The translations under genes and the position numbers were made by a program. From the NCBI GenBank assembly GCA_905178155.1, contig CAJINV010000015.1, positions 705,309 to 769,308 of the forward strand: a stretch of DNA of 64,000 nucleotides, read 5' to 3'. The notes under the pieces are model-generated. The model worked only from the letters and a program-made list of their open reading frames with translations, ran no database searches and was not told the DNA's origin. The stretch is from Amoebophrya sp. A120 (lineage: Eukaryota > Protista > Dinoflagellata). Below are positions 3,260 to 61,800 of this stretch, piece after piece (position 1 is the first letter of the stretch; each line of letters begins with the position of its first letter).

Positions 3260-5760
3260 TTACCGGTCCCAAATGCCGAAACCATCCATAACCAAAGCGT
3301 GTTGGTCGGTATCAAGTGTAAAAGTGTCTGGGCGGTCTGGAAGATTGCCAGGTTTGTCATGCACATTTTGCGTGACGTCTGATGTCTGTGATGCCTGCCC
3401 TAGCGTCACAGATTTTGTGAGGGCTTCCTGATGCCTATACCGCATGACCAATGCTCTTTCCGTGTAGCAAAACTTGGGCTCTCTTTGGTGCTGCTCATGC
3501 AATACAGAGATTTTTAGAATCCAAAATCAGCATGACAAGTTGGATTCTTCCAGACCCAGACATTTTTACAGTTGATAGTCGGGACGTTGAAAAAGCGCGT
3601 ACCCGTTCACCCACATAGCGAGATATCCAAAGTAGTAAACAAGTTTTCATTTCCATACACGTACGATAAAAGCTGTTCGTTGAATGATGCCAGGGTGCAT
3701 CATCTTCCTGACTAAGTACCGTCTTATTTGAAGTTCGGTTTTTATTTTTTACTTCTCTCGAAGCAAGAGAGCATGACAAAGAACTCGGGTGATGTTGTGT
3801 CTTCACAGCTTGTTCAACGAAAATATCCTGCGGCGGTAGTTCAAGTTATTGAGTTTAATTTTGATGAATACTGTGCGATGCATTCACTGATATTAGGCCA
3901 ATTTTTTACATTTCGTACGTGTCCGGTAAAGAAACAGAAAGTTTGTTTTGCGTACCAGCGAGGAGACATCGTTCGGGAAGGCTTGGAGGTCCTGGATGTG
4001 CCAGTTTTTATTTTTGAACCGTTTCATGTCCCGATATCAAGTGCAATTTTGTCTGGGTCTGGAAACCTGTGATGCTGAATTGAGCATGATTGAAGCGCTT
4101 GCAATGGCAGCCAAGCATGATAATTTTTTGAGACGCCTTCTGATGCCTAGCACGCATCACAAATTGCGTTTTTGCATGACAAAGAATCCTTCTCTTTTGC
4201 TGCTCATGCAACACAGATTTTCCGGGAATGCAAGACACGCATCACAAGTTCCACTTTTCCAGACCCAGACATTCTTGCATTTGATACCCGCACCGTTTTG
4301 TCAATGATGATGAGCCGCAGATGGCCAAGCTTCGGATCTTATGCAGCGCAAAAGTATCGTACTCGTAGTAATTGCATTTGTGCATGACAAATCTTTTTCT
4401 CAAGGGAAATCAGCATTACAAGTTTACTTTGTAATGCTGGGCTAATTTGTAATGCAATTTATACTAGTACGATGCTTCTGCATTGCATAGATCTGCATGG
4501 TGAACCCCGTCCAGCATGAACACTTCCCACCCACTGAACAGCGGCGGCGTGGCGGGAGAATTCACATCGAAGGCCTACTATCAAATGTAAAAGTGTCTGG
4601 GTCTGGAAGATTGCCACGTTTGTCATGCATATTTTGAATGACCCATGACGTCTGTGATGCATGACCTAGCTGGCATCACAGATTTTTAGAGCACTTTTTG
4701 ATGCCTCTACCGCATGAGAAACGCCCTCTCCACGTAGCACAAACTGGAGTCCTTTTGCTGGTCATGCAATACAAATTTTTTTAGAATCCACAGACAGCAT
4801 TACAAGTTTAGAATCTTCCAGGCCCAGACATTTTTACATCTGATACCTTCCATGTGTTTACCACTGTGCGGAGAGGAGCAGGCTCAACGTCCTGGTCGTG
4901 TTCCGGCCGCTGCAGCTGGTTATCAACTGTGAAAGTGTCTGGGTCTGGAAGATTGCCAGGCTTGTCATGCATATTTTGCATGACTCCTCAAGTCTGTGAT
5001 GCATGCCCTAGCATCACAGATTTTTAGAGGGCTTCCTCATGCCCATTCCGCATGACAAATGCTCTTTCCGTGCTGCAAAATTTGGACTCTCTTTGTCTTT
5101 GCTGCTCATGCAATACAGATTTTTTTAGAATCCAAAATCAGCATGACAAGTTGGATTCTTCCAGACCCAGACATTTTTACAGCTGATACTGCTCCCCGTC
5201 TTGCAGCTGGTCTTGTTGATGTTCTTGCTCGTCGGAATTGTAGTGGCCTTCATAACGCTATCCTCTGCAAGAAAAGTGAGTATCGCTATCGCGCTCTCAA
5301 TCTGAATGACAAGTCTTGTTTCTTAGGCAGAAAGAATTACAAAGTATTTCACTTTTATTAATCTTCATGCTGCGCAAGTTATTTGATGTCATGCGGTTGT
5401 TGATACATAAAGCTCCGAATCAGTACTGCGATATTTTCACTTTTGCAATGCATAAACGCGGATCCGGGAGAAAAGCAAGGCCATGGAGCTTGTCGTGCTC
5501 CTGGTTTGCCTCGAGCTGGTCGTATTCCTCGGGATCTGGGTATCCTGTGCAAAAACTCAACGTACCAGTAGTAGTACCCATCCCACCAGATTTATGTCAT
5601 GCAATTCTTGCTCTTGTTCTTCTGGCAAGTAGGGCCGGAGGTCGTCAGTCACTCCTCGTCCTCCCTGATGTTGCAAAATTTTTGCATAAATAAGGGCGTT
5701 GATGCGTAGCTGTGTATGTTGGGTGGAGCAAGAACCTTTCATGGCGCTCCTCCTCTAAGC
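3260..5760 (-). CDS. Hypothetical protein split by at least 6 introners (5' end may extend to about 5950)
   Basis: Hand-spliced: DPEEYDQLEANQEHDKLHGLAFLPDPR/YEGHYNSDEQEHQQDQLQDGEQ/LQRPEHDQDVEPAPLRTVVNTWK/AFDVNSPATPPLFSGWEVFMLDGVHHAD/PKLGHLRLIIIDKTVR/DMKRFKNKNWHIQDLQAFPNDVSSLVRKTNFLFLYRT...FGYLAMWVNGYALFQRPD/QHALVMDGFGIWDR*. The frame is kept at every marked element junction. Confidence 0.8.
3310..3577. mobile_element. Introner family B (268 bp)
   Basis: TIR TATCAAGTGTAAAAGTGTCTGG / CCAGACATTTTTACAGTTGATA; TSD GTCGG/GTCGG. Confidence 0.95.
4035..4286. mobile_element. Introner family B (252 bp)
   Basis: TATCAA..TGTCTGGGTCTGGAA / TTCCAGACCCAGACA..TTGATA; flanks CCCGA/CCCGC. Confidence 0.9.
4340..4489. 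mobile_element. Introner family C (150 bp)
   Basis: TIR TATGCAGCGCAAAAGTATCGTACT / AGTACGATGCTTCTGCATTGCATA; TSD GATCT/GATCT. Confidence 0.95.
4579..4845. mobile_element. Introner family B (267 bp)
   Basis: Family B TIRs; flanks CCTAC/CCTTC; interior is the reverse complement of the 59880..60145 copy. Confidence 0.9.
4921..5188. mobile_element. Introner family B (268 bp)
   Basis: Family B TIRs; flanks CTGGT/CTGCT; close relative of 3310..3577. Confidence 0.9.
5259..5454. mobile_element. Diverged family C-like introner (196 bp)
   Basis: TATCCTCTGCAAGAAAAGTGA / TCACTTTTGCAATGCATA; TSD AACGC/AACGC; frame restored. Confidence 0.85.
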
Positions 5761-5969
5761 AGGAATACATAAACAAACGGCCACCTCGAGTACTCACTAG
5801 AAGATGTTGTTGTAGCCGCGGCGGCCACGAGGGCGGCGCTACCTGGTTGTACAACGTACTTAAGCATGACAAGAAAAGCCAGATGCTTGTTGTTTTCACG
5901 ACTCGTGAAGTAGTAGACCCCGCTCTTCAAGAGTGGTCTTGCGAATGAACTACAAATCCCCAAAAAAAA

Positions 5970-7270
5970 CATTCAGAAAAAAACACCCATCCCCATCCAT
6001 TTTGCCATTTTTTTAATGCAAAAAAATCATGAAAAATAAATAAAAAAAGAAAAAAATCCGAAATATTTTTTGCATGGCATTTGCGAGAAGTGCTAACTGA
6101 TGGAGCTAGCTAGTGGCGTCAGTGGCTGCACATACTTTCGCTATGTGATTTTAAGGTGGCTAGCTGAAACCGAGATCCGAACCACGACCGAGAAATACAA
6201 CTCGCCGAAGCCAGTTCTCGTCGTTGGGCACCTCTGGTCCCATGGAGGTTTTGAACTTTTGGCGCAGTCACGCACAGATACCCAGAGGTAGCGGAGAACT
6301 CGCCAAGAACGCCGCGGCTGCACCATTGAAATTAGCGGGAGCAGCACCAGCTGCGCAATTATCATCGATAGTTGCAGAGCAGATCTTGCGTTCCAGCTCA
6401 CGAAAAAAAAACGATTTTTTTTTTCGCAAAAAAATGTCACGCTTTTGAAAATGCTCACTTTTTTGATGGATGATGTTTTTTCGCACGACGGCACCACAAA
6501 TATTGGATCGACCCATCCAGTCCATTTTCTTGTAGAAGTGGCTGGATGGGTCGAGGCAATATTTGTGGTACCGTCGTGCGAAAAAACATCATCCACAAAA
6601 AAGTAGGAATTCTTGCAATTTTCAAAATGACACTAGAATTTGTGGATGATGTTTTTTCGCACGACGGTGCCACAAATATTGCTTCGACCCATCCAGCCAT
6701 TTCTAGAAGAAAATGGACTGGATGGGTCGATCCAATATTTGTGGTACCGTCGTGCGAAAAAACATCATCCATCAAAAACAAGGTCAATTTCAAAAACGAA
6801 ATTTTTTTGGAAAAAAAACAAAATCAAAAAGTTTTTCCTACGGCAGCCTTGCCGAACAGCAAAAGTCTTCCCGTCCTGAATTTGTATTATCCACTCGAAC
6901 CGAAAGGACAGCACGTGTCAAAATCCATCCCAGGTCCGTCGCTTTCATCCCATGTGGCGACGCGGCGGCATGGCGATATGGCCACTGCAAAATGGGCCAA
7001 GCGATGGGGCCAGAGTCGATGTGCGGCGGCGAAAAGAGGCTTTTGCAGGATCTGGAAGTCGTCGCCTGCTGCGATGACCTGTGATGGACCTAGCAAATTT
7101 CATTCATGTCAAAAGTTCCTAGCTATGACGCCACTTTAGCTATGTCACCATTAAAGTGATTGCTTCCGATGCCGATTGGTGACAACCCTGAAAATTTTTT
7201 GAAAAAAAGCCGGTTTTTTTTTGTTGAAAAAATAGCAAAATGGATGGGGATGGGTGTTTTTTTCTGGATA
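5970..7270. mobile_element. 1301-bp non-autonomous TIR element, copy 1 (family A termini)
   Basis: Reverse complement of 43588..44888 almost base for base. Left terminus altered (CATTCAG instead of TATCCAG) and no TSD visible. Confidence 0.9.
6460..6778. repeat. Compound palindrome: four approx. 57-bp units in U,U',U,U' order forming two mutually inverted approx. 135-bp hairpins
   Basis: Unit TGGATGATGTTTTTTCGCACGACGGYRCCACAAATATTG..TCGACCCATCCAG at about 6467 and 6643, reverse complements ending at about 6594 and 6771. Confidence 0.9.
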
Positions 7271-7342
7271 ATTATCTTCTTGACTTCTACGGGGTGAAGA
7301 TGGGCACTACGTAGTGTACGTAGAACTAAAAGTTCTTTTTAC

Positions 7343-10300
7343 TCAGGATAGCACTTCGCCAATGATCATGGGAACCCAAACCGGCTGCTTCCCCGGAGCC
7401 AGAACCGCATGCGGTTCGTCTTGACCGAGAAGCTCCTGCCTGTATCCAAGAAAAAAAACGTTGTTAGTGTAAATTTGTGATGCGCAACACTCAAGATGAT
7501 TTCGTGTTTCATGCATGGCATGCATCGTAAGGCCCATTAAAGGGCGTTTTCACGTCGTACTATCTGCGCATGACAGGTTTTTGCTGTCATGCCAGACAAA
7601 TTTGTAATGCTATTCCTTCAAAAAAGTTAGACCTACAATGTTTTTTTCTTGGATAGCCCGGTCTCGGGGTTCACGACCGCGACGTTCTCGCGCCCGTGCA
7701 ACAGCTTCTGCACTTTCGCGTGCAAAGCGCTCCGCTGCCACTTGTGCAGGTTTGTCGCTTCTGAGCCCACCAGCGTCGCCGGGTCGACCTCCTCAACCAC
7801 CGGACGACCCGCGTTTGCAACAGCGTGAGGAGGAGGAGGGCCCGCGGCCGCGCCCGCAGGGTTCCCGAAGGGGACTCCACCACTGCGCGGGCGAGGCAAC
7901 GGCCCTTCTTGTAGAAGTGGTCCACCAGTAGCAGTACCCCCGACAGCATCAAGAGGCGCGATCTATCCAGTGCAAAGATCGTGTCTGGGTCGGGAAGGAT
8001 GCAAGGTTTGTCATGCACGTTTTGCATGACTTCTCCTAACGTCAGTGATGCATGGACTAGCATCACAGATTTTGCGAGGGCTTCCTGAGTGATGCCTTTA
8101 TCGCATGAGAAATGCCCTCGCGCCGTGGCAAAAACTGCACCACCACCTCTTTTACTGTCCATGCAATTATACAGATTTTTGTAGTATTTGTAGTATGCAG
8201 ACGCAACATCACAAGTTACATCCTTCCAGACCCAGACACATTTGCAATCCATACAGCCCCTCCTCCACCTGCATCGTGCGGCCCCAGACTGGCAGGAAAA
8301 GAAGAACTTGTACCTTGCGCCGCGGCAAGAAATGCTGGATCCTGTGCGTGAAGATGTTGTAGCCCTCCTGCATCAAGATCATGTTCATGTTGAGCAGGTA
8401 AGGCTGGAGCAGGTGGTTGGAGACCATACTCGCCCCCTTGTAGTCCTCCCCAGCCGACGGCAGGAAGAGCATGCGGAATCATGCTTCCACCCGCTACTGC
8501 TTGTAGTCCAGTATGCGGATCCAAATCACCACCGCCGAGATGAGATGTTGCTGTATCAAGACCATGGCTGAGTAGAAAGCCCCCATCTGGGGCATTTATA
8601 TTTTGCATTTGCTCCGTAACAGTGCTGCCGGTAAAAGCACCAGCCCCAGAAGCCGTGGCTGGCGAGGTGGTCCTAGACAGCCCCACCTTTTGAATCAGCT
8701 CCCACAAATCGGTTCCCACCTGCTGCTTCACCACTTCCGTGAGCCCGGTCTTGCGGCTGAAGTAAGCCGCCCGCACCACCGTGTTACCACTTGCCGGTTG
8801 GTCGCGAGGCCAGGCGACGGCCACCACCGCCACGTTTGCCTGCGGGTTGGCACCACCCGAGTAGGGATTTTGGTACGCCGTGGACATGGCAATGTCGGCT
8901 AGAATGATCTTGCCCTCGCACCGCAGCTCCGCCTTGCCTTGCGGCTGAATACTGTGTCCGTTCACGATGCGGTCCACCCCGAAAAACTGCAGAGCAGCTA
9001 TCCAGGAAAAAACACCCATCCACATCCAATTTGTCATGCAAAACATACATAAAGTTCTGTGTTTGTCATGCAATAAATGGATGTGGATGGGTTTTTTTTC
9101 TGTGGATAGCAGCATCGACTTCACTACAGTCGGGCGGCTGCTCTCCCGGGAGCCCATGAGTGCTGCGGCCCCAAAAAGGGGACGGCGTCCGCAGATTGGG
9201 GTTCTGATAATAGACTGCTTTGCCAAGGTATGGGGGTGCCAGGATCGAAATCGACAAAATCGAAAAAGTTTGCGACGCATAGAATGTAGGGCACGCAAGG
9301 CCTGTATTGGGGAGCAGGCAAATGAGACCGATTGCGTTCTTGAGCCCGCTTAAGGGTATGCAACGCGCTCCGCTGCCGGAGTTGGAGTAGCATGACAGGA
9401 GCAGTCTTCTTTGCCCAAACAGCACGACAGGCTGGATTTTGGTGCTCCTGAAATTTGTCATGCGCCAATAGAAAACCGAGCTGGTATCGGTTTTAATATG
9501 CGTCGCAAATTATTTCGAGTGCGTTGATTTCGATCCTGACGCCTCCATACCTCGAGGGCGGGGTCCCCGTCCATCACATCGAGGCCATCGAGGTCCTGGC
9601 TCGTGCTTGTCTCCACGAGCGAAAAAAGGTCCTCGTGCACTGCGCGTAAAACGTCGTCGCGAAATTTCGGGTTTTGCATGATCTCGTTCTCGATCTCGGC
9701 AACGCTCGCACTGTTGACAACAGTCCCGCGCATTGTCCGAGCCTGGCTCTCGACCGCGACTCGAAGCACATGATCCATCACAGCATTGCTGATGCTCGCA
9801 TGCATGTACAGCGTGCGCCCCACCACCACCATGCTGTCCGCGCGCGTCCGGAGTTTTTCAAAAAGCCAGCCGCCCGGTCCCCAGGCCTCTCCGTAGTCCG
9901 CCCGAGGAGCCCAGGACCCTGTAAAAGGGTCCGGGTTCGCGTTCTCAGCTGATATTGATTGGACCGACGAAGGTGGTCTGCTTGTGGCCCATGAAGATTC
10001 GGGCTCCTTTATCGTATGCAAAAACGTCCCCGCCACGGCATAGTCAAGATGGGAAATCGGCTAGACAAATCCACAAGCTTTGGCTGTATTGCATGACAAA
10101 TTTGGACTCGTAGCGTAGTGCTGTTTGAGCTAGCTCAGCAGCATCACAAATCTAGTACATCATGCTGATTGGAGCATGACAAATTGCAAAAAACGACTAG
10201 AAATCGCTCCTCATGGGGCTCCACATGAGAAACATGTTCAGCATGCAGATGTGCATGACAACTATGGGGTGGGGACGTTTTTAAATACGATATCCTTGGT

Positions 10301-12103
10301 GACTGCCTCGGACAAGTACTGGCCTACAGGGTGACCGACGTATCAAAATGACAAGGCCCCCCTCGTCCCCATATCAAAACGGGGATTTGTGTAGCGTGAT
10401 TTGTGATCACGAGTCTTGTTCACGTTGTCATGCTACTTAAAAGGGAAGAGATCGATACGAACAGTACTACAGTAGTACTGGCTTGGGTCGTTGGAAAGCC
10501 TTGCGGCTTCAGCATGACACGACGCAACTGGAAGCGGAAAACAGCATGACAGATTACCTGCAAGCTTTATTTCTCTTGGCCTTCTAGCAATACATTTGTG
10601 CTGTATAAATGCAAATACAGCATCACAAAATTTTTTCGGTATGGGGAGGGCGGATTTTTCCTCACAATACAAACCCGGGCGTCATCTCCAAGTACCGCAG
10701 CCGGAACATCTCGTGGTTTCCCAACAGAAAAATGACCTTCCCGCCAACCCGTTCCCTATGAATTGCAAAAGTATCGTACTCGTATAAATGCATTTACAAA
10801 TTTCCTCAGCACGAGAAAGAAAATTTGTAATGCAGATCTGCGTCTGCCTTAAGACAAAGATTTGTAATGCAAGACGTGCATTTATACGAATACGATACTT
10901 TTGCACAGGATATTCCGCTTTCTCCTGCAAATCGAAAATCAGGTCGTAGATTTCCCGTCCATCCGGTCCACGATCAACGATGTCGCCCGTGCAAATCAGC
11001 GTTCGACGGCCCATATGCATTGCAAGCATGGAAGATCTGGGTCACTGGATTTGTCGTGTGAGATTTCAACGACAGCAAGACCAAGATCTGGTAGACGTAG
11101 ACTACAAGTAACCCGCTTATGTTTTGATGCCCCCGTGCTTTTGAGTGCATGGGAGTTTGTCATGCGTGTTATGATTATGTATGGTTCATAATTTCTCAAG
11201 GAATCTGTAGAAAAAGTTGGCCTCGTCTACTAGTAAAAACTTGTCATGCTGTTATGATGTTGCTGTACAACTGGCTACTCATCTGCGATGTCGACTTCAG
11301 CAACACAAGTTTCCAAACCCAGATCGATATTTGCAATGCATAGCCACCGATCCACGTGACGCCGCTCGCAGCTTCCAGCACGCCCGCGAGCACGAGGGCT
11401 TCGCGCGCGGCCGTCAGTATCCAACAGAAAAAGTTAGGTAGGGCATACAATTTCCTGTAATGCAAAAATAAGTACACAAGCTGCATTGCATCTCCCAAAC
11501 AGAATGCTATGGGCTCGCCCATGACAGTTTTCAATTTTTGTTCATGTAATTAAGTAGTTTTGAAGAAAAATTTATGCCCCGCCTGCTTTTTTCTCTGGGA
11601 TAATCAGGTCTCCATGAAAATCTGCCACGGACAATACGACGTCCATCGTTTCTATCCAAGAAAAAAACGCTGTTCGTGTAAATTTGTGATGCGCAACATG
11701 CAAGATGATTGCGTCTGTCATGCTTGGCATGTATCCTAGGGTCCATTAAACCAGGGCGTTTCCACGTACTGTCTGCGCATGACAGGTTTCCCCCGCTGTC
11801 ATGCCAGACAAATTTGTAATGCTGTTCCGCCAAAAAAGTTACACCTACAACGTTTTTTTCTTGGATAGTTTCGTCGGCAGAAGGGCTTGAAACAAAGAAG
11901 GCCTTTGCCACTTCGGGCGGCATTCCAGGCAAGTGGGTGGACCGTTCTAACTCGGAAGAAGCGCGGTTCCACAGACTCAATAACGCGTCCTCGATTTTTT
12001 TTGCGCTCGCGAGTAAGAACTGCTCGTCGCCAGAAGGTGCGGTGGCCGAGGTAATTTCCGTAAACACCGACCAGATGCGGTCCGAGTATGGAGGCGCTCT
12101 CAA
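7343..12103 (-). CDS. Shewanella-like (SLP-type) calcineurin-like metallophosphoesterase with long low-complexity C-terminal extension; 10 introner-type introns; both ends uncertain
   Basis: Spliced motifs in order: VLSVADFHGDL (DxHG), ICTGDIVDRGPD (GDxxDRG), FLLGNHE (GNHE), LYMHAS, SPFWGR..DCSEVDAALQFFGVDRIVNGHSIQ, CEGKIILADIAMS. This is the PPP-family/SLP signature set. Confidence 0.9.
7443..7655. mobile_element. Introner family D (213 bp)
   Basis: TIR TATCCAAGAAAAAAAACGTTGT / ACAATGTTTTTTTCTTGGATA; flanks GCCTG/GCCCG; homologous to 11653..11867. Confidence 0.92.
7964..8253. mobile_element. Diverged introner family B (290 bp)
   Basis: GTGTCTGGGTCGGGAAGGA / TCCTTCCAGACCCAGACAC; flanks diverged, but element plus 5 bp removal joins GGA/APLDAVGG in frame. 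Confidence 0.8.
8999..9108. mobile_element. Introner family A (110 bp)
   Basis: Same TIR as 36..143; TSD GCAGC/GCAGC. Confidence 0.95.
9229..9549. mobile_element. Introner family G (321 bp)
   Basis: TIR TATGG..CAGGATCGAAATC / GATTTCGATCCTGACGCCTCCATA; flanks diverged; removal joins PALE/GKAVYY in frame. Confidence 0.85.
10010..10292. mobile_element. Introner family F (283 bp)
   Basis: TIR TATCGTAT..AAAAACGTCCCC / GGGGACGTTTTT..ATACGATA; TSD TCCTT/TCCTT. Confidence 0.92.
10341..10669. mobile_element. Diverged introner family E (329 bp)
   Basis: TATCAAAATGA..CCCCCC.CGTCCCCATA / TATGGGGAGGGCGGATTTTTCCTCACAATA; interior homologous to 48757..49056. Confidence 0.8.
10757..10912. mobile_element. 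Introner family C (156 bp)
   Basis: TGCAAAAGTATCGTA / TACGATACTTTTGCA; flanks TTCCC/TTCCG; opposite orientation to 4340..4489. Confidence 0.9.
11014..11342. mobile_element. Degenerate introner (329 bp)
   Basis: TATGCATTGCAA / TTGCAATGCATA termini; removal plus 5 bp joins WIGG/RRTLICTGD. Confidence 0.8.
11418..11602. mobile_element. Degenerate family D-like introner (185 bp)
   Basis: TATCCAACAGAAAAA / TTTTTCTCTGGGATA; flanks GTCAG/ATCAG; joins HGDL/TAAREA. Confidence 0.8.
11653..11867. mobile_element. Introner family D (215 bp)
   Basis: TATCCAAGAAAAAAACG / CGTTTTTTTCTTGGATA; TSD GTTTC/GTTTC. Confidence 0.95.
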
Positions 12104-12801
12104 CTGTTACATTCTCAACTGTTGCATGGCTTTGTGATGCAAAATGGGCATCAACGTAAACATGGTAAAGCTACTTCGCATGACAAATTTAAATTTTGGG
12201 AGGGCCAAACAGCATGGGACTCTGTGCTGAATTTGTTGTAATGCAAGACTTGCAAGATCCGGCCTTTCCTTAACGTCATACCATGCGGCTTGTGATTTAA
12301 ATTGTGACAGATTTGGGACGGATTTGGGACGGCCAGCTTTTTCTGATTCTAGGCGCCCCAAACCGGTCATATGGCCAAGCCATGGCGGGGCGGTGTGGGA
12401 CTTGGCGGCAGGGCTAGCGCGCGTGTTCTGAACGTGTTCTACCGCTTGGGCAGAACCTAAAACCAAAGCTGCGAAAGTACGGCCATCATCCCCCACACCA
12501 TTGCCTGGGGCGTTCCTTTTCACATCTACATAGGGCGACCCAGGGGAATGAAAGGCCGACGACTGGCGGCTTCCAAGGGCCAACAGGTAGCAGCACAGAA
12601 AGCTGGGAGATGTAGAATGCAAAGGTAAAGAGGAAGAACGTTTGCGGCCCGAAGGGCCGCCGAGCGAAAATTTTCGCCAGTGCCAGGCGCGCACCCATTA
12701 AGCAAAATTCGAGACCGACCGAACGGGCACGGAGAGAGTCCCGAAGAGAAAGCAAGCGCTTCTGGGAAGACGCAACTTTTCAGATTTTGACGCCAAGCTT
12801 T

Positions 12802-12929: not shown

Positions 12930-12970
12930 GCCGGAGGCCATGATCTTCGTCCCAAATTGGCCCAGACCCA

Positions 12971-13170
12971 CTGATCGCGATTTCAAATTGATGATCGCGA
13001 TTTCAAATTGATGATCGCGATTTCAAATTGGTGATCGCGATTTCAAATTGGTGATCGCGATTTCAAATTGATGATCGCCATTTCAAATGCCTGATCGGCA
13101 TTTCAAATGGGCGATCTCCATTTCAAATCGCTGATCGCAATTCCAAATTGACGATCTTCATTCCAAAACC
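12971..13170. repeat. Tandem minisatellite, 20-bp unit NTGATCGCGATTTCAAATTG, about 10 copies decaying rightwards
   Basis: Read directly; no unique spacers. Confidence 0.95.
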
Positions 13171-15738: not shown

Positions 15739-15750
15739 TCAAAATCAACT

Positions 15751-46332: not shown

Positions 46333-46361
46333 GGACGCAGGCGCCTAGCGCCTTTTCACCT

Positions 46362-47870: not shown

Positions 47871-48451
47871 GGATTCCACCGAAAAGGGCCCCAAAATCTT
47901 CGCTGTTGATCTTGAAACTCTCAAATTCAAAACTCTACTCGAAGTCGCAGAGGATTTCTACTAGTTCTAGTACACTACACGCGCTCATTCTCATCATCAA
48001 GAGGATCCTTACATTCGGTTTTGTCCGCTCCGCATTTGTACGCAGTACTTACCACTCTGCGCTGCCGCTGGCACCAGCTCTTGCGCTCTAGAAGCTCTCG
48101 CCATGATTCTCTCTCTGAGTCACACAGTCGCAGATCGTTGTCGTTCATCTCGTCTGCGCCGTCGTGATCAAACAATCGAGAACAAAGTTGTGAACAAAAC
48201 TCGACACGCGCGTGTGACGAGTTCACTGTAGAATTATTACCCGTAGAGCAAAATCCTTGCTCTCATCAAAAAGAGAGTGCTGCTGTGTTTCGGTAATAAA
48301 GTTATTTTCGTTTTATCGTAGTTTTAATTGAGAAGTTGAAGTCAAAGTCTCAGTCGCTGTACAGTTCAAAACCAGCCGTCGGAATTGCACTCTTTCGAGC
48401 GCTCGAAAAATAATGCAGCCGATCACCCTGGAAAAAGTAACCGCGTTTTTT

Positions 48452-51400: not shown

Positions 51401-54089
51401 TTGCGACTGCGGTTGCGCTAGTACTTGGGGAAGGAGGATTCTCTTCGCGAAGATCAGAAATCCCAGTCTGGTTAATATTGGCAGCTGCGCCTTGTTCGGA
51501 AGCTGCTGTGCCTCGTGTACCAGCGGAAGTAGCTGTGCCGCGTGTAGTTGTACCAGCGGAAGTAGCTGTGCCGCGTGCATCTCCAGCATCATCTCCTCCC
51601 AACATGGTCGTACTTCCTGCTTCACCCCCCGGCGCCCCACCAGCGGCAAGAGCTGCAAGCCGGCGCTCCCGATCCTCTCTATCCCGGCTGTCCCTGGTCA
51701 CGTAAATCATGTGCGTCCTCGGCTTCGCTTTTCCCGGGAAAAATACTTTTTTCCACGCGAGCAGCGTGCCCAGTAAAATCGCCAGGTACCCGCCGACACA
51801 CAGCTCGAAAGATAAGACTTGGCTGGTCCGGGTTTCGCCGAAGAAGATCGCAAGTAAGATATGCATTGCAAAAGTATCGCACTAGTATAAACCAGCCATG
51901 CTCCGGCTACCGCCGGAGCGCGCGGCTGTTTGGCCGGGTTTGAACTGCTTGCGGACCGGACCACAACGACATGCATACTTAGGCCCCCTCAGCACCGTCT
52001 GCGCGCTTCCCGCGCCTAAGGGCGCTCTGCGCAGGGAGGAGCTACCACTAGCATTGGGGCAGAACAGGAGGCACCTAGATGCCACACCAGTCCGCTACGC
52101 ATGCCTTTCGTTAATCAAGACGAACCAAGAACCGGCCCGCCCCACCCCATTCCCCGGCGCCGCTTTTTCAATGACTTCAGTGTGGGAGGGGGGCGCGAGA
52201 GGGTGCGCGAGAGGGTGGCGCGAGAGGGTGGCGCGAGAGGGTGGCGGGGGCTGGCGCCGAACAAAACAAGTCCGCGAAGGGCCTGCAATGCTAAATATGG
52301 GGAATACCATGCGGATTCGCGCCCGCCACTTTGTGTCTTTACCCTCTCGCAGACCCTCTTTTTTACCTCTTTTGGGGGTCCCCGCTAATAATCCGGCTAT
52401 ACTCGCGGGTAGAGGTCGACAGAGGTGGCCCAGAGGTGGCCGAGAGGGTGCGCGAGAGGTTGGCCCTTATTCGCGCCACCTCCCTCGCCCTCTGTCGACC
52501 TCTCGCGCCCCCTCTTTTTGACCTCTCTGCACCCTCTGAGGCACTTAGGCGCCGCCTTAAGGTGGGTCCTTCGGCGGGCTATACTCGCGCACCCTCTCGC
52601 CGACCCTCTCGAAAGGGGTCCCGCGCCACCTCTCCACCTCTGTCGACCTCTTTTTTACCTCTTTTGACCTCTTTTTGACCTCTCGGCCACCTCTTGTTTA
52701 CCCTCTGTCTACCTCTTTTTTCGCATGAATATAATATATAGTAATCGCATGACAAATTTTGCCAAGAGCAAAAATGGGATTTGTCATGCTGAAAAAGGTA
52801 GACACAGATATCTGTCATGCACGAACAACAACACGAACGCAATTAGTACGAGTACGATGCTTTTGCAAAGGATATAAGAATCGAATCAACGACATCGTGA
52901 CGCCGCCGCAATATCGAATCCGCTGCAGGGCCTCGAGGTAGAAGGCATCACGGGTTTCAGCGGTTTTCCGGAAATGTTCCAGCTGTTCTTTTAATCTTTT
53001 GTTTTCCTCTTGCAAATCGGTTTGCTGTTGCTCCAGTCTCAGCAGGCGCTCCTCGAGGGAAGTAGGGGGCGCAGCAGCCGCGCTTTCTCGTCGTGGTGAT
53101 CCTGGATTTCTCCCTGGCCTCGAGTGAAAGTTTTCCTCTATTTGCTCTTCCATCTTTTCCTGCAGCAGGGCGGGGACAAATTTCGTGTCGTGCTTGTTGC
53201 GAGGAATTATATCGTCGTCATGGCCCATGCCCATCACCTTCTCGCGCGCAATCTCTTGCAGCTCTTCCTCTTGCTTCATCTCGCCCACCTCTACTTGTAC
53301 GGACACTTTTTCAGCAGCTCCTGCAGCCTCAACATCAGCTTGGACCACGAAAGAACTTTCGCCGTCAGGAGAGAGGACCATTTCCGCGTTCTTGTGTATG
53401 TGTTCGGTATGCTCGTCCTGATTCCGCTCTCCAGCTGCTTTCATGCCTACTTCGCTACCGTCATCGACGTCGTCATGCGTCAAATGTGACTGATCGTGTT
53501 CCCGTGCTATGTGTTCAACAGCAACTTGATGCTGCTGTGCCGCACGACGACCGTCGTTGTGACCACCATCATCACCTACACCTAGTATTCTTCGACGTGG
53601 CTGCAAAAACGAGTTGTTTGATTGCTCTGTTTGTGCATCTGAGTCTGACTGCGTGTTCCTCTTCACAGCCTCGTCTAGATCCTTCACTTCTGAGTAGAAG
53701 CGGTCGCTTTCCACTTGTTGCGCAAGCGGAGCAACTCCAGGAGGTGTAGGCAGCTCACCCCCTGCAGCAGCCTCCGAGTGGTGTGCTAACACAGCCTCCT
53801 CTCCCAGGTGGTCCAGCACTCCGTCCTCATTTCTATGCCGCTCTGCCACCTGCTGGTGGTCTCTTCTTTCTAAAAACTTGTGGTGCGTAGACGAACTAGG
53901 AGCTTCACGCCTGTCATCCCCTGGTGCTGGTGACGCACCACCTGTCGAAAGAGCTGAAACTTGTCTAGGGAAATAACTCTTTTGTAAAACGCCTGAGAAA
54001 TTAAACGCTGTGAAAAGACTCAATAGAATGAGATGAAGAAAAGGCGATCTACATCGAACGACGATGGCATGCTGCATAAACTGCATCAT
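48452..54089 (-). CDS. Multi-pass membrane protein with N-terminal signal-like segment and acidic/His-rich region; 5 introner introns
   Basis: In-frame joins SLIRFL/LAIFFGE, PLHS/YRSWCRWKKLS/xIGDHGD, AHY/VNQLNPD, AMLL/SFQLSKRW; several hydrophobic helices. Frag1/DRAM-like resemblance is only tentative. Confidence 0.85.
48757..49056. mobile_element. Introner family E (300 bp)
   Basis: TATTGCAATGAAAAATCCCCCCTCCCCATATC / GATTTGGGGTGGGAACTTTTTTCACTTTGATA; TSD CAAGA/CAAGA. Confidence 0.92.
49105..49260. mobile_element. Introner family C (156 bp)
   Basis: Family C TIRs; TSD TAGTG/TAGTG. Confidence 0.95.
50578..50905. mobile_element. Introner family E (328 bp)
   Basis: Family E TIRs; flanks CGCTC/GGCTC. 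Confidence 0.9.
50946..51198. mobile_element. Introner family B (253 bp)
   Basis: Family B TIRs; flanks GAACG/GAGTG; frame restored. Confidence 0.9.
51860..52874. mobile_element. Introner family C expanded to 1015 bp by a nested Helitron-like insert
   Basis: TATGCATTGCAAAAGTATCG / CGATGCTTTTGCAAAGGATA; TSD TAAGA/TAAGA; 162 bp remain after removing 51892..52744. Confidence 0.92.
51892..52744 (-). mobile_element. Non-autonomous Helitron-like element, copy 1 (853 bp)
   Basis: Minus strand starts TTACTATATATTATATTCATGCG and ends GCTCCGGC-GGTA-GCCGGAGC-ATGGCTGG; inserted between A and T with no TSD. Confidence 0.8.
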
Positions 54090-55832
54090 GATCTCCAAAG
54101 ACAACTTGGTTGGGGGCAAACGTGGTACGTTTGCACGTGCAAGTATCCGAATCTACTATTGTCTACACCGTTGAGTCGCAGTACTAAAAATTTGTCACGG
54201 GCAGGTATCGTTATCGCTTTGAGAGGGCCTGTTCGATCTTCGAACTAAAATGCTTATCGTCTTAAGTAAAAATAAACCAGAAAGGAGACCACACTGGAGT
54301 GAACGCAACGAGAACGAGTACGAGAGCGACATGTTGCTACGACGTTGTTGATGAATGACAGTTGAGACGGGTATAGCTACATGCAATCTGTGGCGGACGA
54401 TTTAGGAGAGGTAGCGCCGAGAGAGCACAATCACAATGTTGACCGAACATCTTCATTACGAAGGAAGACAAATACTGCATGCGGACGAAGAAGCTGTAGC
54501 TCAGGACGAAAACAAAACTCAATAACCGATCCCGATGAGCAGGAAGAGGCCCAGTAACCGAATAGTTGTGTGTATGTGTTTACTGTTACTAGGTCTTTGC
54601 GCTACTGCTACAGAAACTTCATATCTGCTCCATTTCTTGTAGCAGAACAGAAGGCCCTTGCAGCAAATGAATTTGCCGCCGAGAGCGACTAAGCTTTCGC
54701 CCGCCCGCTCCTTCTGTCTGGAGCAGGAAACCCAGGACCACCTGCTGCCTGTCCGATTTGATGTTCGTTGTCGATGCAAAGATATCATACAGCTTTATTT
54801 GCAATTTGATCGTTTCAAAACTCTGGTAGATAATCATTCGGTGGTATACAGGGCATTCGTGATTCGCATTTTTCGTCCTACTACAGCTCTATGATCTACG
54901 ATTCATACCACCTCCCCGCCGTGCAAATTCAACATAGATAAAAATTGCACGACAAATCATAGCAGCTTTTTTGATAGACAAGTAAAACTTCTATATGGTC
55001 TACAACTAACTTCCGCGTAGTTGATGCTTACAAATCTCTTTTCTCTTAGAAGTAGTTTCCGAAGTACAAGACATTTTGTCTTGCTATTCTCACTTCTTGT
55101 TTTGAACCTAAAGCAAATTCTTTCCAGCAGACTGGCGTATTTTTGCTGGCACACGAGTTGCACGACTGCAGCGGACAGATATCTTCAACATACGCCTGAT
55201 GAAGAGGACCCCCCGCTGTCGCTGTGTGCCCGCCAGATTCTCTTTACTTTCTCCCCTTTTGCTATTTTGTGTGATGTCAATGAAAAAATGAAATGCCTTC
55301 CAGATGGTAGCACTCGGGCTGACGGGTAGCATAGGAGTGGTGCATCTTCACACCCCCGCCCTGCTGCCCTTTTACTTCTTGCCACGAGCGGTTTCTACCA
55401 TTGCTAAGAGTAATCCAATCAAGTGTAAAAAAGGTCATATCGCCCAAAGAATTGGCGCCTTTTGATGATGTTTTAGACAATGATTAATCGAAAAAGTTGA
55501 TACGAGTTTTTAGATGAGAAGACACGTGGCCGTAGTGGTCATCTTCATCGCTTTTCATCTTCGCACAGTGAAAATCCTGGTGACGAAGAAACTTTTGTCG
55601 CTGATCGCAGGATGAAACAAACAGCAACGGAGCAAGAACTTGTACTACAAAATGCGCAGGATTTTGCCAGATCGGGTAGAAACTATTTGTCGCTTAGGAG
55701 TTGTAGTTGGAGATGAGCGAGATGAGGTCGCTGACGTTGTTCTTGACGAGCTTGACAAATTCTTCTTGCATATGCATTGGAGGTTTTTTCACTATCCACC
55801 ACCGCAAGTTGCAAAAAATTATGTCGTCGTCT

Positions 55833-58800
55833 CTACAAATCGTCCATGTCGACTTCCATGATCTCCTTTTTCTCCACTACTTCTTCCTCGATGACCTCCT
55901 CCTCGATAATTTATGAACTGCAAAAGTATCGCACTCGTAGTAATTGCAGTCATGCATTACAAATCTTGTTCTTAAGGTAAATCCGCATAACAAACTTTCT
56001 TTCTCATGTTAAGGAAATTTGTAATGCATTTCTACTAGTACGAGTACGATGCAACTTTTGCAATGCATATAATTTCCTCCTCCACGATCTTCTCGGCGTT
56101 GTTCGCAGCACTACTTCCGCCCTGATTCCACCACTCGTTGCCACCAGTTTGTGCTGAGGATCCAGCTGCTGCCCCCTGTAGTTTGAGTTATTTTCAGTAA
56201 GTTTAGAAGTACAACGCAGTCGGAGCTGCTGCACATGTTGATGAGGCATGACGTAAGTTTGTTTGCACTTGTTGCTTTAGAAGAGCTGAAAACATCAAGA
56301 AAACCAAAACGGAAGTCCAATGACACAACAAGAACAAAAATCACATACCGTCTCCACCCACTTATTCGTTGCATCATCCCACTTCCAGTTTCCGTCCTTA
56401 TTCCAATTATCTGTCGCACCGTAATTGTTGTTGTAGCCAGAAGAGGAAGCAGCAGCTGCACCGGAGGAATTATTGTTGTAGCTGTAGTCTTTGTTGTAGT
56501 TGTCCCGATCGTTATAACCGGTACCGGATGAGCCCCAGTTATTGTCGTCCTTGCTTTTGTTCCAGTCTTTATTGTTGTTCCAGTCGTTATAATTCCAAGA
56601 ACCACTGTCCCACTTGCTCTTGTCGTCGTCTTTGTTCTTTTTATCCCAACCTTCCCAGTTGGACGAAGTTGCAGCTTTTTTCTCCACTTCTTCCTCTTCT
56701 TCCGCACCAAAATTCGGATCCCAGGCCATGTCGGCGATGAGCTTCTCATGTTCGGTGAGCCCGCCGGTTTTCGTGAATTCGTAATTGGTAATATCGAAAG
56801 GAAAAACTCCCCCTCCCCATATCGAACAGGCATGTTTCCGAAAATTTGTGTTGCTGATTTGAGGTCACAAATCACGTTTGTCTTGCAAGGAGACAACGGC
56901 AAAAGCTTCGCCCCCATTATAGAAGCGATTTGTCATGCTGTTGGGCCTAAAGGGCAGCCGCTTGCCATGCTGAACAACTAGACCGATACGCCCCTACATA
57001 GCCTGGGGATCTGGCGGCAGTGCCTTCCTGCAATACAAAGCTGATTTGTGTACGCAAATCCAGCATCAGAAACTTCGTTTCGATATGGGGAGGGGGGATT
57101 TTTCCCTTTGATAGGTAAACTGGTGCTTTTGGTACCCGGTGACATCGTTGAATTGTTTCATCTATGCAGTGCAAAAGTATCGCACTCGTACTAATCGCAT
57201 TCATGCAAGACAAATTTCTTTTTCAAGCTAAATCAGCATGAGAAATTCCACATGTCATGCTGAGCTAATTTGTATTGCAATACTACGAGTACGATACTTT
57301 TGCAGTTCATATCATCGTGTCATGCATTTCCGCTTTCTGGTGGACGAAGGGCGCGAACTTGCTATCCGTTTCGAAAGTCGGCTCCTTGTAAACCAAACCC
57401 CCGCTGGATTGAATGACCTGCTGTTCCTTGCCCTGCTTGTCCTTCACCGGAACAATTTTCCACTCCTTGTCGCTGACTGTCGCGATGAGCGACAAATCCT
57501 TCACCGCGTTATTCAGCACTGCAACCTGCAAGGCCTGCATCGCGATGTCGTCTTTCTTTTCCGGACTGCTTTGGACGGATTTATCCTGGATCGCTTTCAC
57601 ACCAGACAGTTCGTTCTGCTCGGCGGCGGCGGAGGCGATCTCCTGTTTCTTCTTTTCAAACGCCTCCTTCCCGAGGCACACGTAGTTGCCGTTTAGTGGG
57701 TTTTTCGGGTTCTCCAAAATTTTCCAGCTCTGGTGTTCTTGCTCCCACCGCGCAATATGACAACCTCAGGTTGGAAATCCTCAAAGTGCAAATTACTATC
57801 TATTATATTCATGCGAAAGTAGAGGTCTACAGAGGGTCGAAGAGAGGTGGCCGAGAGGTAAAAAAGAGGTCGACAGAGGTCAAAAAGAGGTCGACAGAGG
57901 TGGAGAGGTGGCGCGGGAGGTCATTCGAGAGGGTGGCCGAGAGGGTGCGCGAGTATAGCCCGCCGAAGGGCTCGCCCTAAGGCCGCGCCTATAGGGACCA
58001 GAGGGGGCCGAGAGGGTCCAGAGAGGGTAAGCGAGAGGTGGACAGAGGTGCCGGGAGGTTGCGCGAATAAGGGCGAACCTCTCGCGCACCCTCTGGGCCA
58101 CCTCTCGGCCACCTCTGTAGACCTCTACCGGCGAGTATAGCCGGATTATTAGCAACACCTCTCGGGAGAGGTCAAAAAGAGGGTCTGCGAGAGGGTCAGA
58201 AAACCCCGAATCCGCCCGGCTCGCGGCCGGTTTTGTTTGGGCCTTTTCATCGCGCAGGCCCGCACCCTCTCGCGCTACCCTCTCGCGCACCCTCTCGCGC
58301 CACCCTCTCGCGCCACCCTCTCGCGCTACCCTCTCGCGCTACCCTCTCGCGCTCCCCTCTCGTGCCAACCATTTCCGTCGGGAAGCAAATAGGGCGGGGG
58401 CGGGATGGTGATCAAAATAGGGCAGCGCGGCCCCCGTTCTGCTTCCTTCGGCACCTATGTCGAGGTGGCTTCTCTTCGCCCCCAAGCTTCGTTGCAGTTG
58501 CTCCCTGCGCATAGCGCCAGCAGGCGCGGGAAGCGCGCAGGAGGCCGCGCGGGCTGACATGGCGCAAACCGGCGCCAGTAGTTCCCTCGGTCTGTCACGC
58601 TGTGCCCAAAGACCCGGCGCTGCGGTCCGACCCGCGCATTGTCCTGCCCCGCCACAACAGCCTTGCGCCCCGGCGGCAGCCGGGGCATGGCTGGTAATTT
58701 GTAATGCAAAAAAACGACTCCAGTTGAAGCGCCATTTGTAGTCGGCGCATGACAAATTTCCTGGGCCCTTAAAGCATGTCTGTCATGCAGGTTAAGGCAA

Positions 58801-61800
58801 AGGGGTGCGCTTCTGTCGTGCTAAGCAGCACTCCAATTCTTGACCCCCAGCAGGACAATAGTCGGCCTCCATTGTGTCCTCTGCAATACAGTCTTTTTTG
58901 AGTCGTTGTCGTATTTCATGCATCACAAATCATTTCCACTTTGAGGATTTCCATTGTTCTGAGGCTTTCATACGCAATTACCACGCTGTCGTACTTTTCG
59001 ATCGCCAACCGGGATTATCAAATGTAAAAATGTCTGGGTCTGGAAGAATGCAACTTGTAATGCGTATTTCAAAACACAGAAAAGTCTCTCATGCATACGT
59101 AGCAAAAGCTGCCCCCTTTCTGTCAGCAAAATAGGGGACTTGTCATGCGGATTCGGCATTGCGGAAGCTTCTCGAAACCTGTGATGCTAGAGCTTCCATG
59201 CCAGACCTTCTGTGTCATGCAAAAACAGCATGCCTCTTCCAGACCCAGACATTTTTACATTTGATATGGATTCTTCCTGCTTCTTGCTGTTTTTCTCCTT
59301 CAAAATCGTCAAGTGGATCTTCGGGATGATGATCAGCTTTGACTTGATTTGCAGCGCCACCCGGAAGTGCTCCTCGTCGATGACCTGGCGGAACTCGCAG
59401 AGCTGGCCCTTGTAGGGATTTTTGTCCGTCGACTTCATGATCTTCATCCGCAAACCCTTGTAGGGGTGGGCCTTTTTTTGCCCCTTTTCTTTGTCGTGCA
59501 ACTCCTGCCACTTCAGCGGAATTTTGTCGGGCCTTTGCTCCTCCTCCTTAATAATAGCCAGCTCTTGCTTCTGCGTCGTCAGTGCTTTCTGTACCGCAGA
59601 ACCGTGGGTCAAAGCCAGCGTGCCCATGTCGGCTGTGTTTTGTTGGTGCATGAAGAACATTATCGAACTTCAAAAAAGGCTGTTCTTGCGGACATGTTGA
59701 ACATATGAATTTGAACTACAGCTGCTGCATCTGTATCTATAACCACATGAACAACATCTTCCCAGAAGTAGTGCTACGTACTGCTAGCAGCAAAAAAATT
59801 CACTATATCAAAAATACCCGCGACTTGATTTATGGTTGCCAGCTGCCGTTCCACCATACCCCCGTCTTTTCGCGTCGCTTATCAAATGCAAAAATGTCTG
59901 GGTCTGGAACATTCTAAACTTGTGATGCTGTCTGTGGATTCTGAAAAAATTTGTATTGCATGAACAGCAAGAGGACTCCAGTTTGTGCTACGCGGAGAAC
60001 AAGGCGGCTCTCATGCGGTAGAGGTATCAGAAAGCGCTCTAAAAATCTGCGATGCTGCGGCATGCATCACAGACGTCATGGGTCATGGAAAATATGCATG
60101 ACAAGTCTAGAAATCTTCCAGACTCAGACATTTTTACATTTGATATCGCTGCGGCTTCGTCAATTGCGTATTTCTCGGTCTTGCTGGTTGTCAAAGCCAG
60201 TTGATTCTATCCTGAGTAAAAACGTACCCACACCAGAGTTGTAATGCAGATTTGCAAAGACAGGAAGACTTGTAATGCGCATCCCCATGAGAGCCATTTC
60301 CAATCGTGTTTTGGAATTTGTGATGCTGTGAACAGGATGAGCAGATGAATCTGTGATGCGGCTACACTTGCTAACCTGCACTACACTGCATACGGCAACT
60401 TGTCATGCGTGACTCACAAAACTCCTAGGTTTGTGTTGCAAAATCCTCATCCTGACTCTGGTGTGGGTACGTTTTTACTCAGGATAGATTCGCCTGCGAC
60501 TTCTTCGCTTCCGGTCCGAAGTCTCGTAGGCCGCCCTTCACCGCTTTCTCGAGTTTGCAGTCAGTACCACGGACGAACATCCAGTCGTTTTTGTTTTCAT
60601 CGTCCCGAATGTACATGCCGTCGGTGAGAATGTGCATGATGCGCTGCGTGCTCTGGTTCGTCTGGGCCCCTGACCCGGAGATTTGTTTGTTCTGCATGAA
60701 CCGGCACTGCACTGCGTCGAGTTCGTAAAGCAGACGCCCATCGTTGTCCGCCTGGACTAGCCTGCCTTGCGTGCCACGTTTAAGACCGAACTCCCCCTTT
60801 ATTGCTTCACTTATCGTTTTCTCGGACTTCGCGTTGGACTTCAGATGGCATTCTGTTTTGGTGATGATGTGTTGCATTTAGTTGGATTTTTGATCATGAA
60901 GATGGTCGTGCACGTGCTCGTCTTCATGCATGAAAATTTCATGTGTACTACTACGTCTATCAAGCGATGATCGTGATGTCCTTGAAAGAGAAAGCCTCTC
61001 ATTTCAATTCAAGCAGAACAACAATCAAAAACAAAGCAAAAAGCATCTTCGTATTAAATACCGCTCTGCTTCACGTCCAGCACGGTATTTGCGGTGCTCA
61101 AGACCTTCATGCCGTCGTTGGGAAACAACTGTAAAACGACCGCCGGCTGGCTACTAACCCCGTCCCCCTGCTCTACATGGACTAGGTCGTAGAGTGTGAA
61201 GGCAGAGCCTGCTGCGAAGGTGGTTTTGTCCACCTCGTCTTGATTGGTGGTCATGTTCGTCTGCATTGAGTACTTGTCTTGCTCGAACGTTACCTTCACG
61301 TCGTTGATGGGCAAGTGCACTTCCTCGGGCCAGCCGTCCATCCCCAAGGACGCAAAGGCGACGATTACCGTTTGCGCATCGGTGTCCGCCTTGATCACGT
61401 CTCCTATCCTCCCCCGCTGCTTCGCATGGTGGGAAATCACCTTCACGCGCTGCCCCGGCTCGAAATACTTGCAGCACTCACGGGGGTCTACTACGACGTG
61501 ACCTGATAGTTTTTGTTTTGATAGGATGAAATACTTTCTTGTCGGTGTCATGCGAAATTCAAAACTGCGAATCGTTTTTATTGGGTTATTTTCCTTGACA
61601 CGTTCGTACTAACTGTCCTCCAAATAGGAAATTCACAACAAATCACTATCACACCTATTTTCCCGATTCCCAGATCCCCCAGCCTCGGTTCCACCATCAT
61701 CGTTCCGTTTTCCAACATTTTTCTCACGGTCGCCTATGGATGTGTCAGAGTTGAAATCGACAAAGTTGAAGTAACTTGCAATGCATAAAATCGATACCAG

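Follow-up and report, generated by a model that had tools for sequence, protein, structure and literature searches.

Introduction

The closest described system is that of the introner elements of Amoebophrya sp. A120, a marine parasite of algae (PMC7789003), and the elements analysed here are very likely the same, as judged by their features. In the accessible part of that account, the A120 introners form repeated families with non-GT-AG ends, lie in co-oriented genes and carry inverted repeats that join the intron ends. The inverted repeat consists of TAT, seven variable bases and an A-run, and is accompanied by direct repeats of 3-5 nt (5 bp in the legend of Fig. S19). All of these properties are shared by the present locus. 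However, the reported inverted repeats measure 8-20 nt, whereas those found here are often 25-32 nt (about 30 nt). A hairpin was already proposed for the A120 introners. Among the non-canonical sites of Table S4 in the same paper, 9/9 from A120 begin with NT and 9/9 from A25 begin with TT. Nearly all spliceosomal proteins were found in Amoebophrya and U1 was undetected, and the removal of tens of thousands of non-GT-AG introns without a detectable U1 stands there as an open question (PMC7789003, same part).

The introners of Polarella glacialis and Aureococcus anophagefferens (10.1101/2020.10.14.339549, PMC10228655) are likewise DNA transposons with TIR and TSD that form introns both ways. The accessible parts of these sources describe GT, GC or GA donors and AG acceptors, carried by the element or co-opted from the duplication, whereas neither AG nor G at +1 is needed here. 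An orientation bias was also reported for the classes discussed there, in contrast to the lack of bias in the present elements. The nonconventional introns of euglenids (PMC3935182, PMC11282704, in part) likewise have variable non-canonical borders, paired ends, direct repeats, a proposed MITE origin and an unknown mechanism. They differ in having CA/TG at +4,+5/-7,-6 and pyrimidine-purine junctions, whereas here TAT at +2 to +4 pairs with ATA at -7 to -5. In Fritillaria borealis, TIR transposons gave rise to non-GT-AG introns that are removed by a changed U2 spliceosome, according to the accessible parts of 10.1101/2025.08.15.670264 and PMC11282704. The ends of those introns are mostly AG-AC or AG-AT, whereas only U at +2 is constant here. 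PMC8469720 was set aside as a comparison because the part available deals with canonical fungal introns.

Results

In the window, which is the whole 64-kb stretch of DNA analysed, TAT...ATA TIR elements with 5-bp target duplications sit in exons in both orientations. Having a TIR and a target duplication and lacking a transposase, they resemble MITEs (non-autonomous TIR transposons). None of nine ORFs in the large elements matched a transposase family in Pfam, and a search of Rfam gave no match. The TIR motif of TAT, 7 nt and an A-run is present in families B and C and, by inspection, in A, E, F and G; family D has the TAT and lacks the A-run. The TAT is kept in about 98% of cases at the 5' and 3' ends alike, no difference in TAT conservation between the ends being found, and the A-run is conserved while TIR positions 4, 5, 7 and 10 vary. 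Beyond the TAT, the TIRs differ widely from family to family. At loci of another assembly, the 5-bp duplication matched at 5/5 positions in 288/362 calls, in a scoring that favours matches. A TA-type target duplication was rejected since the duplication is 5 bp long.

The element coordinates given in the first-pass annotation were correct, and each of the three pairs that it named consists of one family with copies in opposite orientation. The pairs are the family B elements at 4579..4845 (267 nt, TAT...ATA TIR) and 59880..60145 (perfect 5-bp duplication), the family C elements at 4340..4489 (150 nt) and 10757..10912, and the family E elements at 50578..50905 (a mismatch within the duplication) and 56792..57113. 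Forward and reverse-complement alignment scores were compared after trimming 35 nt of each TIR. The scores were 24 forward and 291 reverse-complement for the B pair, 24 and 78 for the C pair, and 77 and 175 for the E pair. The copies are assigned opposite orientations because the reverse-complement scores exceed the forward ones. Further opposite pairs start at 9229/19238, 10010/60208, 37354/59016, 51860/57756 and 5970/43588. They include a second opposite-orientation copy of family B (59016..59266), which rests on alignment and length agreement, and a family D element (9229..9549), opposite to those at 19238, 41777 and 61735. The 1301-nt element at 43588..44888 has perfect ends, lies in a kinesin gene and is the inverse of 5970-7270 with 3 mismatches.

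All host genes had been claimed to lie on the minus strand. This was borne out for a subset of the window's genes, namely three genes tested and two placed by Pfam matches (kinesin and UDPGT, both on the minus strand). Gene 1 (3262..12087, minus strand) is the 3' part of a gene extending past 12087, and contains 17 TIR introns and a decayed one. It appears as one contig of 7911, 6976 and 7545 nt in the runs. When spliced, it has a single open minus frame from 12087 to 3262, and the other five frames hold 20-35 stops; its motifs are, we assume, metallophosphoesterase-like. Gene 2 (48279..54246, minus strand) contains five TIR introns (48757, 49105, 50578, 50946 and 51860). Its spliced length of 3891 nt equals that of its transcript contig, and the minus frame is open. 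Gene 3 (54761..63080, in part, minus strand) contains 10 TIR introns and four minus-strand GT-AG introns (56176-56348, 59633-59817, 60853-61061 and 61503-61654). It measures 4182 nt when spliced, the same as the span of its contig, and 1035 codons are open. The Pfam KOW match is below the cut-off, and the product is presumably a KOW-motif, Spt5-like protein.

The removal of elements was followed in joined contigs from two samples of one study; these runs were labelled RNA by guess, none of the runs that contain this DNA being registered as RNA, and the contigs carry no strand. The removed unit is the element plus 5 nt, i.e. one copy of the 5-bp duplication, and this skip was found in 14/14 TIR joints inspected. 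The earlier claim that removal restores the reading frame is to be corrected in this respect. At the two copies tried, 59880 and 56792, length and frame are lost both when the element is taken out without the 5 nt and when one TA stays behind. Direct joints support the copies at 4579 (joint 4573-4846 in X3/X4/X5, 272 nt skipped; intron 4575-4846 on the minus transcript), 4340 (joint 4334-4490, 155 nt; intron 4336-4490, CT-AT) and 10757 (joint 10751-10913, 161 nt; intron 10753-10913, AT-GA). The latter two, in opposite orientations, are absent from one and the same contig. The other three named copies are supported by length only. For 50578, the X3 piece stops at 50573 with no other letter, and the lengths agree (34 and 34 nt); for 56792 they also agree (44 and 44 nt; intron 56788-57114, CT-AC), each of these two stretches containing two elements. 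For 59880, the inferred intron is 59876-60146 (AT-CG), and 518 nt equal 518 nt with one fitted 185-nt GT-AG intron; the length of the whole gene agrees too (4182 and 4182 nt). TIR introns and GT-AG introns are lost from the same contig. X6 gave no cover of its own locus in 2900-12300, and the X9 raw reads, from a relative, matched repeats only (90-95%) and contained no junctions. The 1301-nt element in the kinesin gene restores the frame on removal, a result of frame only, with no transcript cover seen.

The position of the cut was derived from introns in which the duplication is lost, decayed or mismatched. The 1815-nt intron at 5537..7351 (minus strand; C-TAT...ATA-CCCA) has no duplication left and contains the nested 1301-nt element at 5970-7270. 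Its joint (5536-7352, 0 bases common to both sides) places the cut unambiguously, 1 nt ahead of TAT and 4 nt beyond ATA. Upper bounds were obtained from the family B element at 7964..8253 with a decayed duplication (1/5; joint 7958-8254), the family D element at 9229 (joint 9223-9550), the E-like element at 10341..10669 with a decayed duplication (joint 10335-10670) and the decayed 336-nt minus-strand intron at 3620..3955 (G-TAC...ATA-TCTC, no duplication; joint 3618-3955), each with 1 base common to both sides. The mismatch in the 50578 copy gave a lower bound. A fixed register of N-TAT...ATA-NNNN, in which the cuts fall 1 nt ahead of the first TIR and 4 nt beyond the second, fits these six informative introns and is extended to the rest, with the two orientations of a family pooled. 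Since the cut is asymmetric about the element (1 nt against 4 nt), the machinery must read the polarity of the transcript.

The bases at the junctions are almost free. No GT-AG, GC-AG, GA-AG or AT-AC option exists in any equivalent register for 28/32 transcript-backed elements; a canonical-type option is possible in the other 4/32, and GT-AG falls in the fixed register in 1/32, namely 4579..4845. The donor dinucleotides are CT (11), AT (10), GT (9) and TT (2) among these 32. U at +2 is the sole constant junction base, the donor base +1 is free, and all 16 acceptor dinucleotides occur. At loci of the other assembly, GT was counted 79 times, AG 21 times and both 7 times in 239, against 73, 17 and 5 on the antisense control, and GT-AG or GC-AG was possible in 14/239. 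Pyrimidines account for 77/187 of the last intron bases, so this position is not pyrimidine-rich. The proposal that the TIR sets the boundaries is therefore upheld: GT-AG does not set them, as the 28/32 elements without a canonical option indicate, nor does the duplication, as 5537-7351 is cut without one. Three of the four canonical donors here begin with GTAT, the TAT of the TIR corresponding to their +2 to +4 bases, in a comparison of four introns of which three were fitted by length. A method for predicting additional GT-AG introns was dropped after it found 0/4 of those known in the window.

A strong genome-wide orientation bias had been named as the finding that would speak against orientation-independent removal. 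No bias was found in 149 loci of another assembly, collected with the family B pattern from 16/64 parts of the collection. One of the two orientations relative to the host gene accounted for 110/209 (95% CI 0.46-0.60), and neighbours compared free of strand were 30 same and 28 opposite. The splits by family were B 67:52, C 13:13, D 6:5, E 4:10, E2 3:2, F 12:10, A 1:3 and G 4:4. The p value of 0.049 for family E was reached only without the strand margin, with the direction opposite. Within the window, family B stood at 10:2 (p 0.039) and 28/35 lay in family majorities (p 0.014), a skew that did not recur in this larger set.

Pairing of the arms was also analysed. The end stems have predicted duplex energies between -31 and -46 kcal/mol, with the two strands equal in stability. 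The intron at 3620-3955 has a weak duplex (-6.3 kcal/mol, shuffle p 0.30) and is still removed. G-U and A-C pairs in the transcribed strand numbered 221 and 215 at the loci and 47 and 49 in the window, without G-U excess. Positions 16-25 gave 89 G-U against 63 A-C at the loci (p 0.04), one of 10 partly overlapping tests, and the difference was absent in the window. In family B, the arms matched at 804/1064 positions against 779 +/- 10 after shuffling, a slight covariation. End pairing of canonical introns exceeded shuffles in 1/4 (p 0.03) and is not general.

Discussion

The elements have been described before; the cutting rule and the lack of bias appear undescribed in the accessible literature, the figures of PMC7789003 aside. 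The orientation statements in the accessible text of PMC7789003 refer to genes, whereas the present results concern elements with one register and unbiased orientation. The accessible parts of PMC12130899 and PMC9860276 contain no orientation count for Amoebophrya. Together, the fixed register, the unbiased orientation and the free acceptor reduce the question of removal without detectable U1 to an exact rule for the substrate, which explains how exons can be invaded at nearly any site. The rule also points to candidate branch adenosines at -7 and -5, and would let annotators fix junctions exactly.

A structure-guided splicing route had been deduced from removal in either orientation. The boundaries are indeed defined by the TIR, but the deduction of such a route does not follow. 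The TIR gives both strands identical terminal sequence, so orientation-freedom is equally expected of any sequence signal inside it. Moreover, either-orientation introners with ordinary spliceosomal sites have been published. We consider it somewhat probable that a relaxed U2-type spliceosome removes the elements by reading their symmetric ends. The UAU of the TIR would serve as donor bases +2 to +4, and the 3' cut would be measured from the closing AUA, either from the stem base or from a branch adenosine located at -7 or -5. Arm pairing would probably help to draw the ends together, replacing U1. If all signals read lie in the TIR, orientation would be irrelevant and nearly every exonic 5-mer would be a tolerated insertion site. 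This reading is favoured by the fixed register, by U at +2 as the sole constant junction base, by the NT and TT starts of the sites in Table S4 of PMC7789003, by the GTAT start of three of the four canonical donors, by the loss of TIR and GT-AG introns from one contig, by the nearly complete set of spliceosomal proteins in Amoebophrya, by the Fritillaria introns and by the lack of orientation bias. The constancy of U at +2 is partly built in, because the TIR itself supplies that base. Against the reading, a free +1 and a free acceptor lie far beyond the normal tolerance of the spliceosome. The donor would also be masked by the end stem (-31 to -46 kcal/mol), which would have to be opened.

It is less likely, though still worth serious attention, that a spliceosome-free nuclease-ligase reads a TIR stem whose overhangs measure 1 nt (5') and 4 nt (3'), as proposed for the nonconventional introns of euglenids. 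Such an enzyme would suit ends that are sequence-free save for the TIR, a stem equally stable on either strand, a fixed offset from the stem base and the slight arm covariation in family B; the euglenid analogues are released as circles, according to part of PMC11282704. However, shared descent already predicts the covariation, G-U is not in excess over A-C at the loci or in the window, and 3620-3955 is removed despite its weak stem. U at +2 is also common to two strains whose TIRs differ, and the either-orientation introners with ordinary sites argue against it as well. The null G-U test would rather agree with a sequence-specific protein, e.g. a domesticated transposase-like or new RNA-binding factor, that would place the spliceosome by attaching to the TIR at both ends, making pairing and donor mimicry irrelevant. 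The conservation of the TAT (about 98% at both ends) and of the A-run, while positions 4, 5, 7 and 10 vary, also fits a protein site. This explanation is nevertheless rather improbable: family D has no A-run, and its element at 9229 is nonetheless removed, the TIRs beyond TAT diverge widely among families, transposition too requires conserved ends, and no candidate protein was identified.

Removal at the DNA level, with the joined contigs being DNA, is very improbable. The RNA label of the joined runs is a guess, and the elements start and finish with TA, as would suit ciliate-type IESs, which are excised from DNA with one TA left. But one TA left behind spoils length and frame here, and single-copy contigs of X1 (uniform depth, 39-46) cross exon and element unbroken, for example at 49224-50725 and 55959-56820. 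The GT-AG intron 60853-61061 is likewise missing from the joined contigs, whose depth is low in silent stretches.

It may also be, though less likely than not, that no junction dinucleotide code exists at all. A machine that reads structure would then act on any exonic insertion bounded by a UAU...AUA stem, whichever way it is turned, with cuts 1 nt ahead of the stem and 4 nt beyond it. If true, such a route would render tens of thousands of genic transposon insertions harmless. The machine could be a nuclease-ligase independent of the spliceosome; alternatively, it could be a spliceosome that uses the intron stem in place of U1 and AG recognition.

Results

More than 40 repeated elements of 108–1301 nt, with a 5′ TAT and a 3′ ATA, were found within the window. 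Their terminal inverted repeats (TIRs) are often 25–32 nt long and their flanks are a 5-bp direct repeat; a TA duplication was ruled out as the flank, the repeat at the element edges being 5 bp. None of nine ORFs inside the large elements matched a transposase family. The first-pass annotation had placed copies of three families in opposite orientations within minus-strand genes, with the frame restored by their removal, and both points were borne out. After the TIRs were trimmed off, reverse versus forward alignment scores were 291 versus 24 for the family B pair (starting at 4579 and 59880), 78 versus 24 for the C pair (4340 and 10757) and 175 versus 77 for the E pair (50578 and 56792). Further opposite pairs start at 9229/19238, 10010/60208, 37354/59016, 51860/57756 and 5970/43588. 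The host strand was set by the frame left open when each element plus 5 nt was deleted. In gene 1 the minus frame is open from 12087 to 3262, with 20–35 stops in each of the other five frames, and genes 2 (48279–54246) and 3 (54761–63080) gave the same pattern. Only two of 17 exons passed the Pfam cut-off, both on the minus strand (kinesin, E 1.4e-9; UDPGT, E 7.1e-8). Element length plus 5 is spread over all three modulo-3 classes (9, 13 and 10 of 32), and read-through is therefore impossible.

Several elements have individual features. Two 1301-nt copies at 5970–7270 and 43588–44888 differ by 3 bases, lie in opposite orientations and contain long internal palindromes. The latter sits in the kinesin exon with perfect ends and duplication; the former is nested in a 1815-nt intron, with its outer end damaged and its duplication absent. 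The large elements at 51860–52874 and 57756–58972, each removed whole, have a common interior of ~360 nt in opposite orientation, tandem repeats of 12–13 nt, and C-type and D-like ends. A family D element at 19238–19548 has good TIRs and duplication copies that match at 0 of 5 bases. At 12952–13191, about 12 copies of a 20-nt unit lie in tandem and decay toward one side. Family C is also represented by a decayed fragment at 63063–63191, which has the minority orientation and is situated just upstream of an exon piece whose end is at 63080.

Removal was followed over two stretches in four sets of contigs from two samples of one study; their RNA label is a guess. At 2900–12300, sequencing runs X3, X4 and X5 (one sample) each gave one long contig. 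Fifteen of the 18 joints there were listed. In 14 of these the missing stretch is a TIR element and exactly 5 further nt; B 4579, C 4340 and C 10757 belong to this group, so a single contig lacks both of two oppositely oriented C copies. The remaining listed joint spans a decayed intron of 336 nt. At 44200–64000, contig piece coordinates were used, the joint table being swamped by repeats. Over both stretches, six of nine length checks matched outright and three matched when one GT-AG intron was added to each (185, 173 and 152 nt, chosen from 5, 3 and 2 candidates, respectively). With the fitted introns, gene 3 is 4182 nt, equal to the contig span, with 1035 codons open. Both the length match and the open frame are lost if 59880 or 56792 is retained, if the element alone is removed, or if one TA is left. 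The one intron with a retained-form contig (3590–3984, at a depth of 5–6 versus 35–57 for the joint) is 3620–3955, which is decayed and has the weakest stem of all. This is a weak hint, as contig depth cannot rank the forms and repeats mask retention elsewhere.

The position of a joint is pinned where the two duplication copies differ in sequence. The joints at 7964, 9229 and 10341, like that of the decayed intron at 3620, leave room for no more than one retained base from the left copy, and 50578 requires one or more. At 5537–7351 the duplication is absent and the cut position is unambiguous; the duplication is dispensable for removal. A single register is compatible with all six informative introns, the transcript intron being N-TAT...ATA-NNNN, which places the cut asymmetrically about the element. 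Read this way, the donors of the 32 elements with transcript support are CT (11), AT (10), GT (9) and TT (2), and their acceptors are of 15 kinds. One element is GT-AG, and a canonical option is absent from every equivalent register in 28.

Within the window alone, orientation is skewed (family B 10:2, p 0.039). A count was made at 149 loci of one other assembly, found with the family B TIR pattern and overlapping none of the window's unique DNA. Of their 323 distinct elements, 239 passed the margin of a codon-model strand caller, which was correct for 25 of 26 window elements and concordant in 192 of 196 pairs within loci. Orientations relative to the host were 67:52 for B, 13:13 for C, 6:5 for D, 4:10 for E, 3:2 for E2, 12:10 for F, 1:3 for A and 4:4 for G. 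The pooled count (110/209, 95% CI 0.46–0.60) shows no bias, and a strand-free neighbour test gave 30 same and 28 opposite. Splicing at these loci is presumed from the restored frames. All 16 acceptor dinucleotides are present, and GT (79), AG (21) and both together (7 of 239) are not in excess over an antisense control (73, 17 and 5).

Discussion

Removal of the elements in either orientation is real, and the system is already known. By its features (motif, direct repeats and co-oriented genes) it matches the introner elements of Amoebophrya sp. A120, for which PMC7789003 already proposes a hairpin bringing the exon ends together and reports U1 as undetected. T at +2 occurs in 9/9 A120 and 9/9 A25 non-canonical sites listed in its Table S4, and is common to both although their inverted-repeat motifs differ. 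Introners of Polarella and Aureococcus are reported to yield introns whichever way round they insert, though with biased orientation and splice sites of the ordinary kind. The nearest mechanistic analogues are introns of euglenids and Fritillaria. Unbiased orientation, a single cutting register and a free acceptor are additions to the known system. Neither a fixed register nor an orientation count was found in the Amoebophrya literature searched, which took in few subscription papers and excluded figures. Together the three make the removal route of these introns directly testable; alone they are insufficient to show a structure-guided one.

Such a route had been drawn in the first-pass annotation from orientation independence. 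The independence holds, and because of it the signal that is read is placed within the TIR, but the route does not follow: about 30 terminal bases at each end are identical both ways round, so orientation leaves structure and sequence unseparated. We lean towards a relaxed spliceosome reading the symmetric element ends. For a sequence reading counts that the TIR TAT coincides with +2 to +4 of three of four canonical donors in gene 3, that T at +2 is common to the listed sites of both strains, and that 3620–3955, with its weak stem, is still removed. On the same side, G-U is no more frequent than A-C on the transcribed strand, though this is a weak test for young copies with inherited mismatches. 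On the side of structure, each of the six named copies has a stem predicted to be strong whichever strand is folded (−31 to −47 kcal/mol), the cut falls at a constant distance from the base of the stem, and junction bases are otherwise free. A structure route that dispenses with the spliceosome is rather unlikely. An adaptor protein binding the TIR seems improbable. Excision from DNA is hardly credible: in run X1, of uniform depth, single-copy contigs run from exon into element without a break, which argues against it.

The first-pass annotation had listed conventional splice signals. The four canonical introns of gene 3 (56176–56348, 59633–59817, 60853–61061 and 61503–61654) have A-rich 3′ ends, U-rich 5′ ends and no pyrimidine tract, and that list may therefore be inapplicable here. 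Reduced spliceosomes are known, as in Giardia, Trichomonas and Yarrowia, for which the 3′ site lies at a short set distance from the branch point. The ends of 61503–61654 are complementary (shuffle p 0.03).

Intron phases 0:1:2 among the 239 elements of the other assembly are 111:62:66. The skew may come from an A/T preference at the target-site centre landing on codon position 2. The same families occupy different sites there, with a median identity of 87% and a best of 96% for hits above 200 nt, and reads of a further run, X9, match B and D ends at 90–95%. Therefore, the families are common to relatives.
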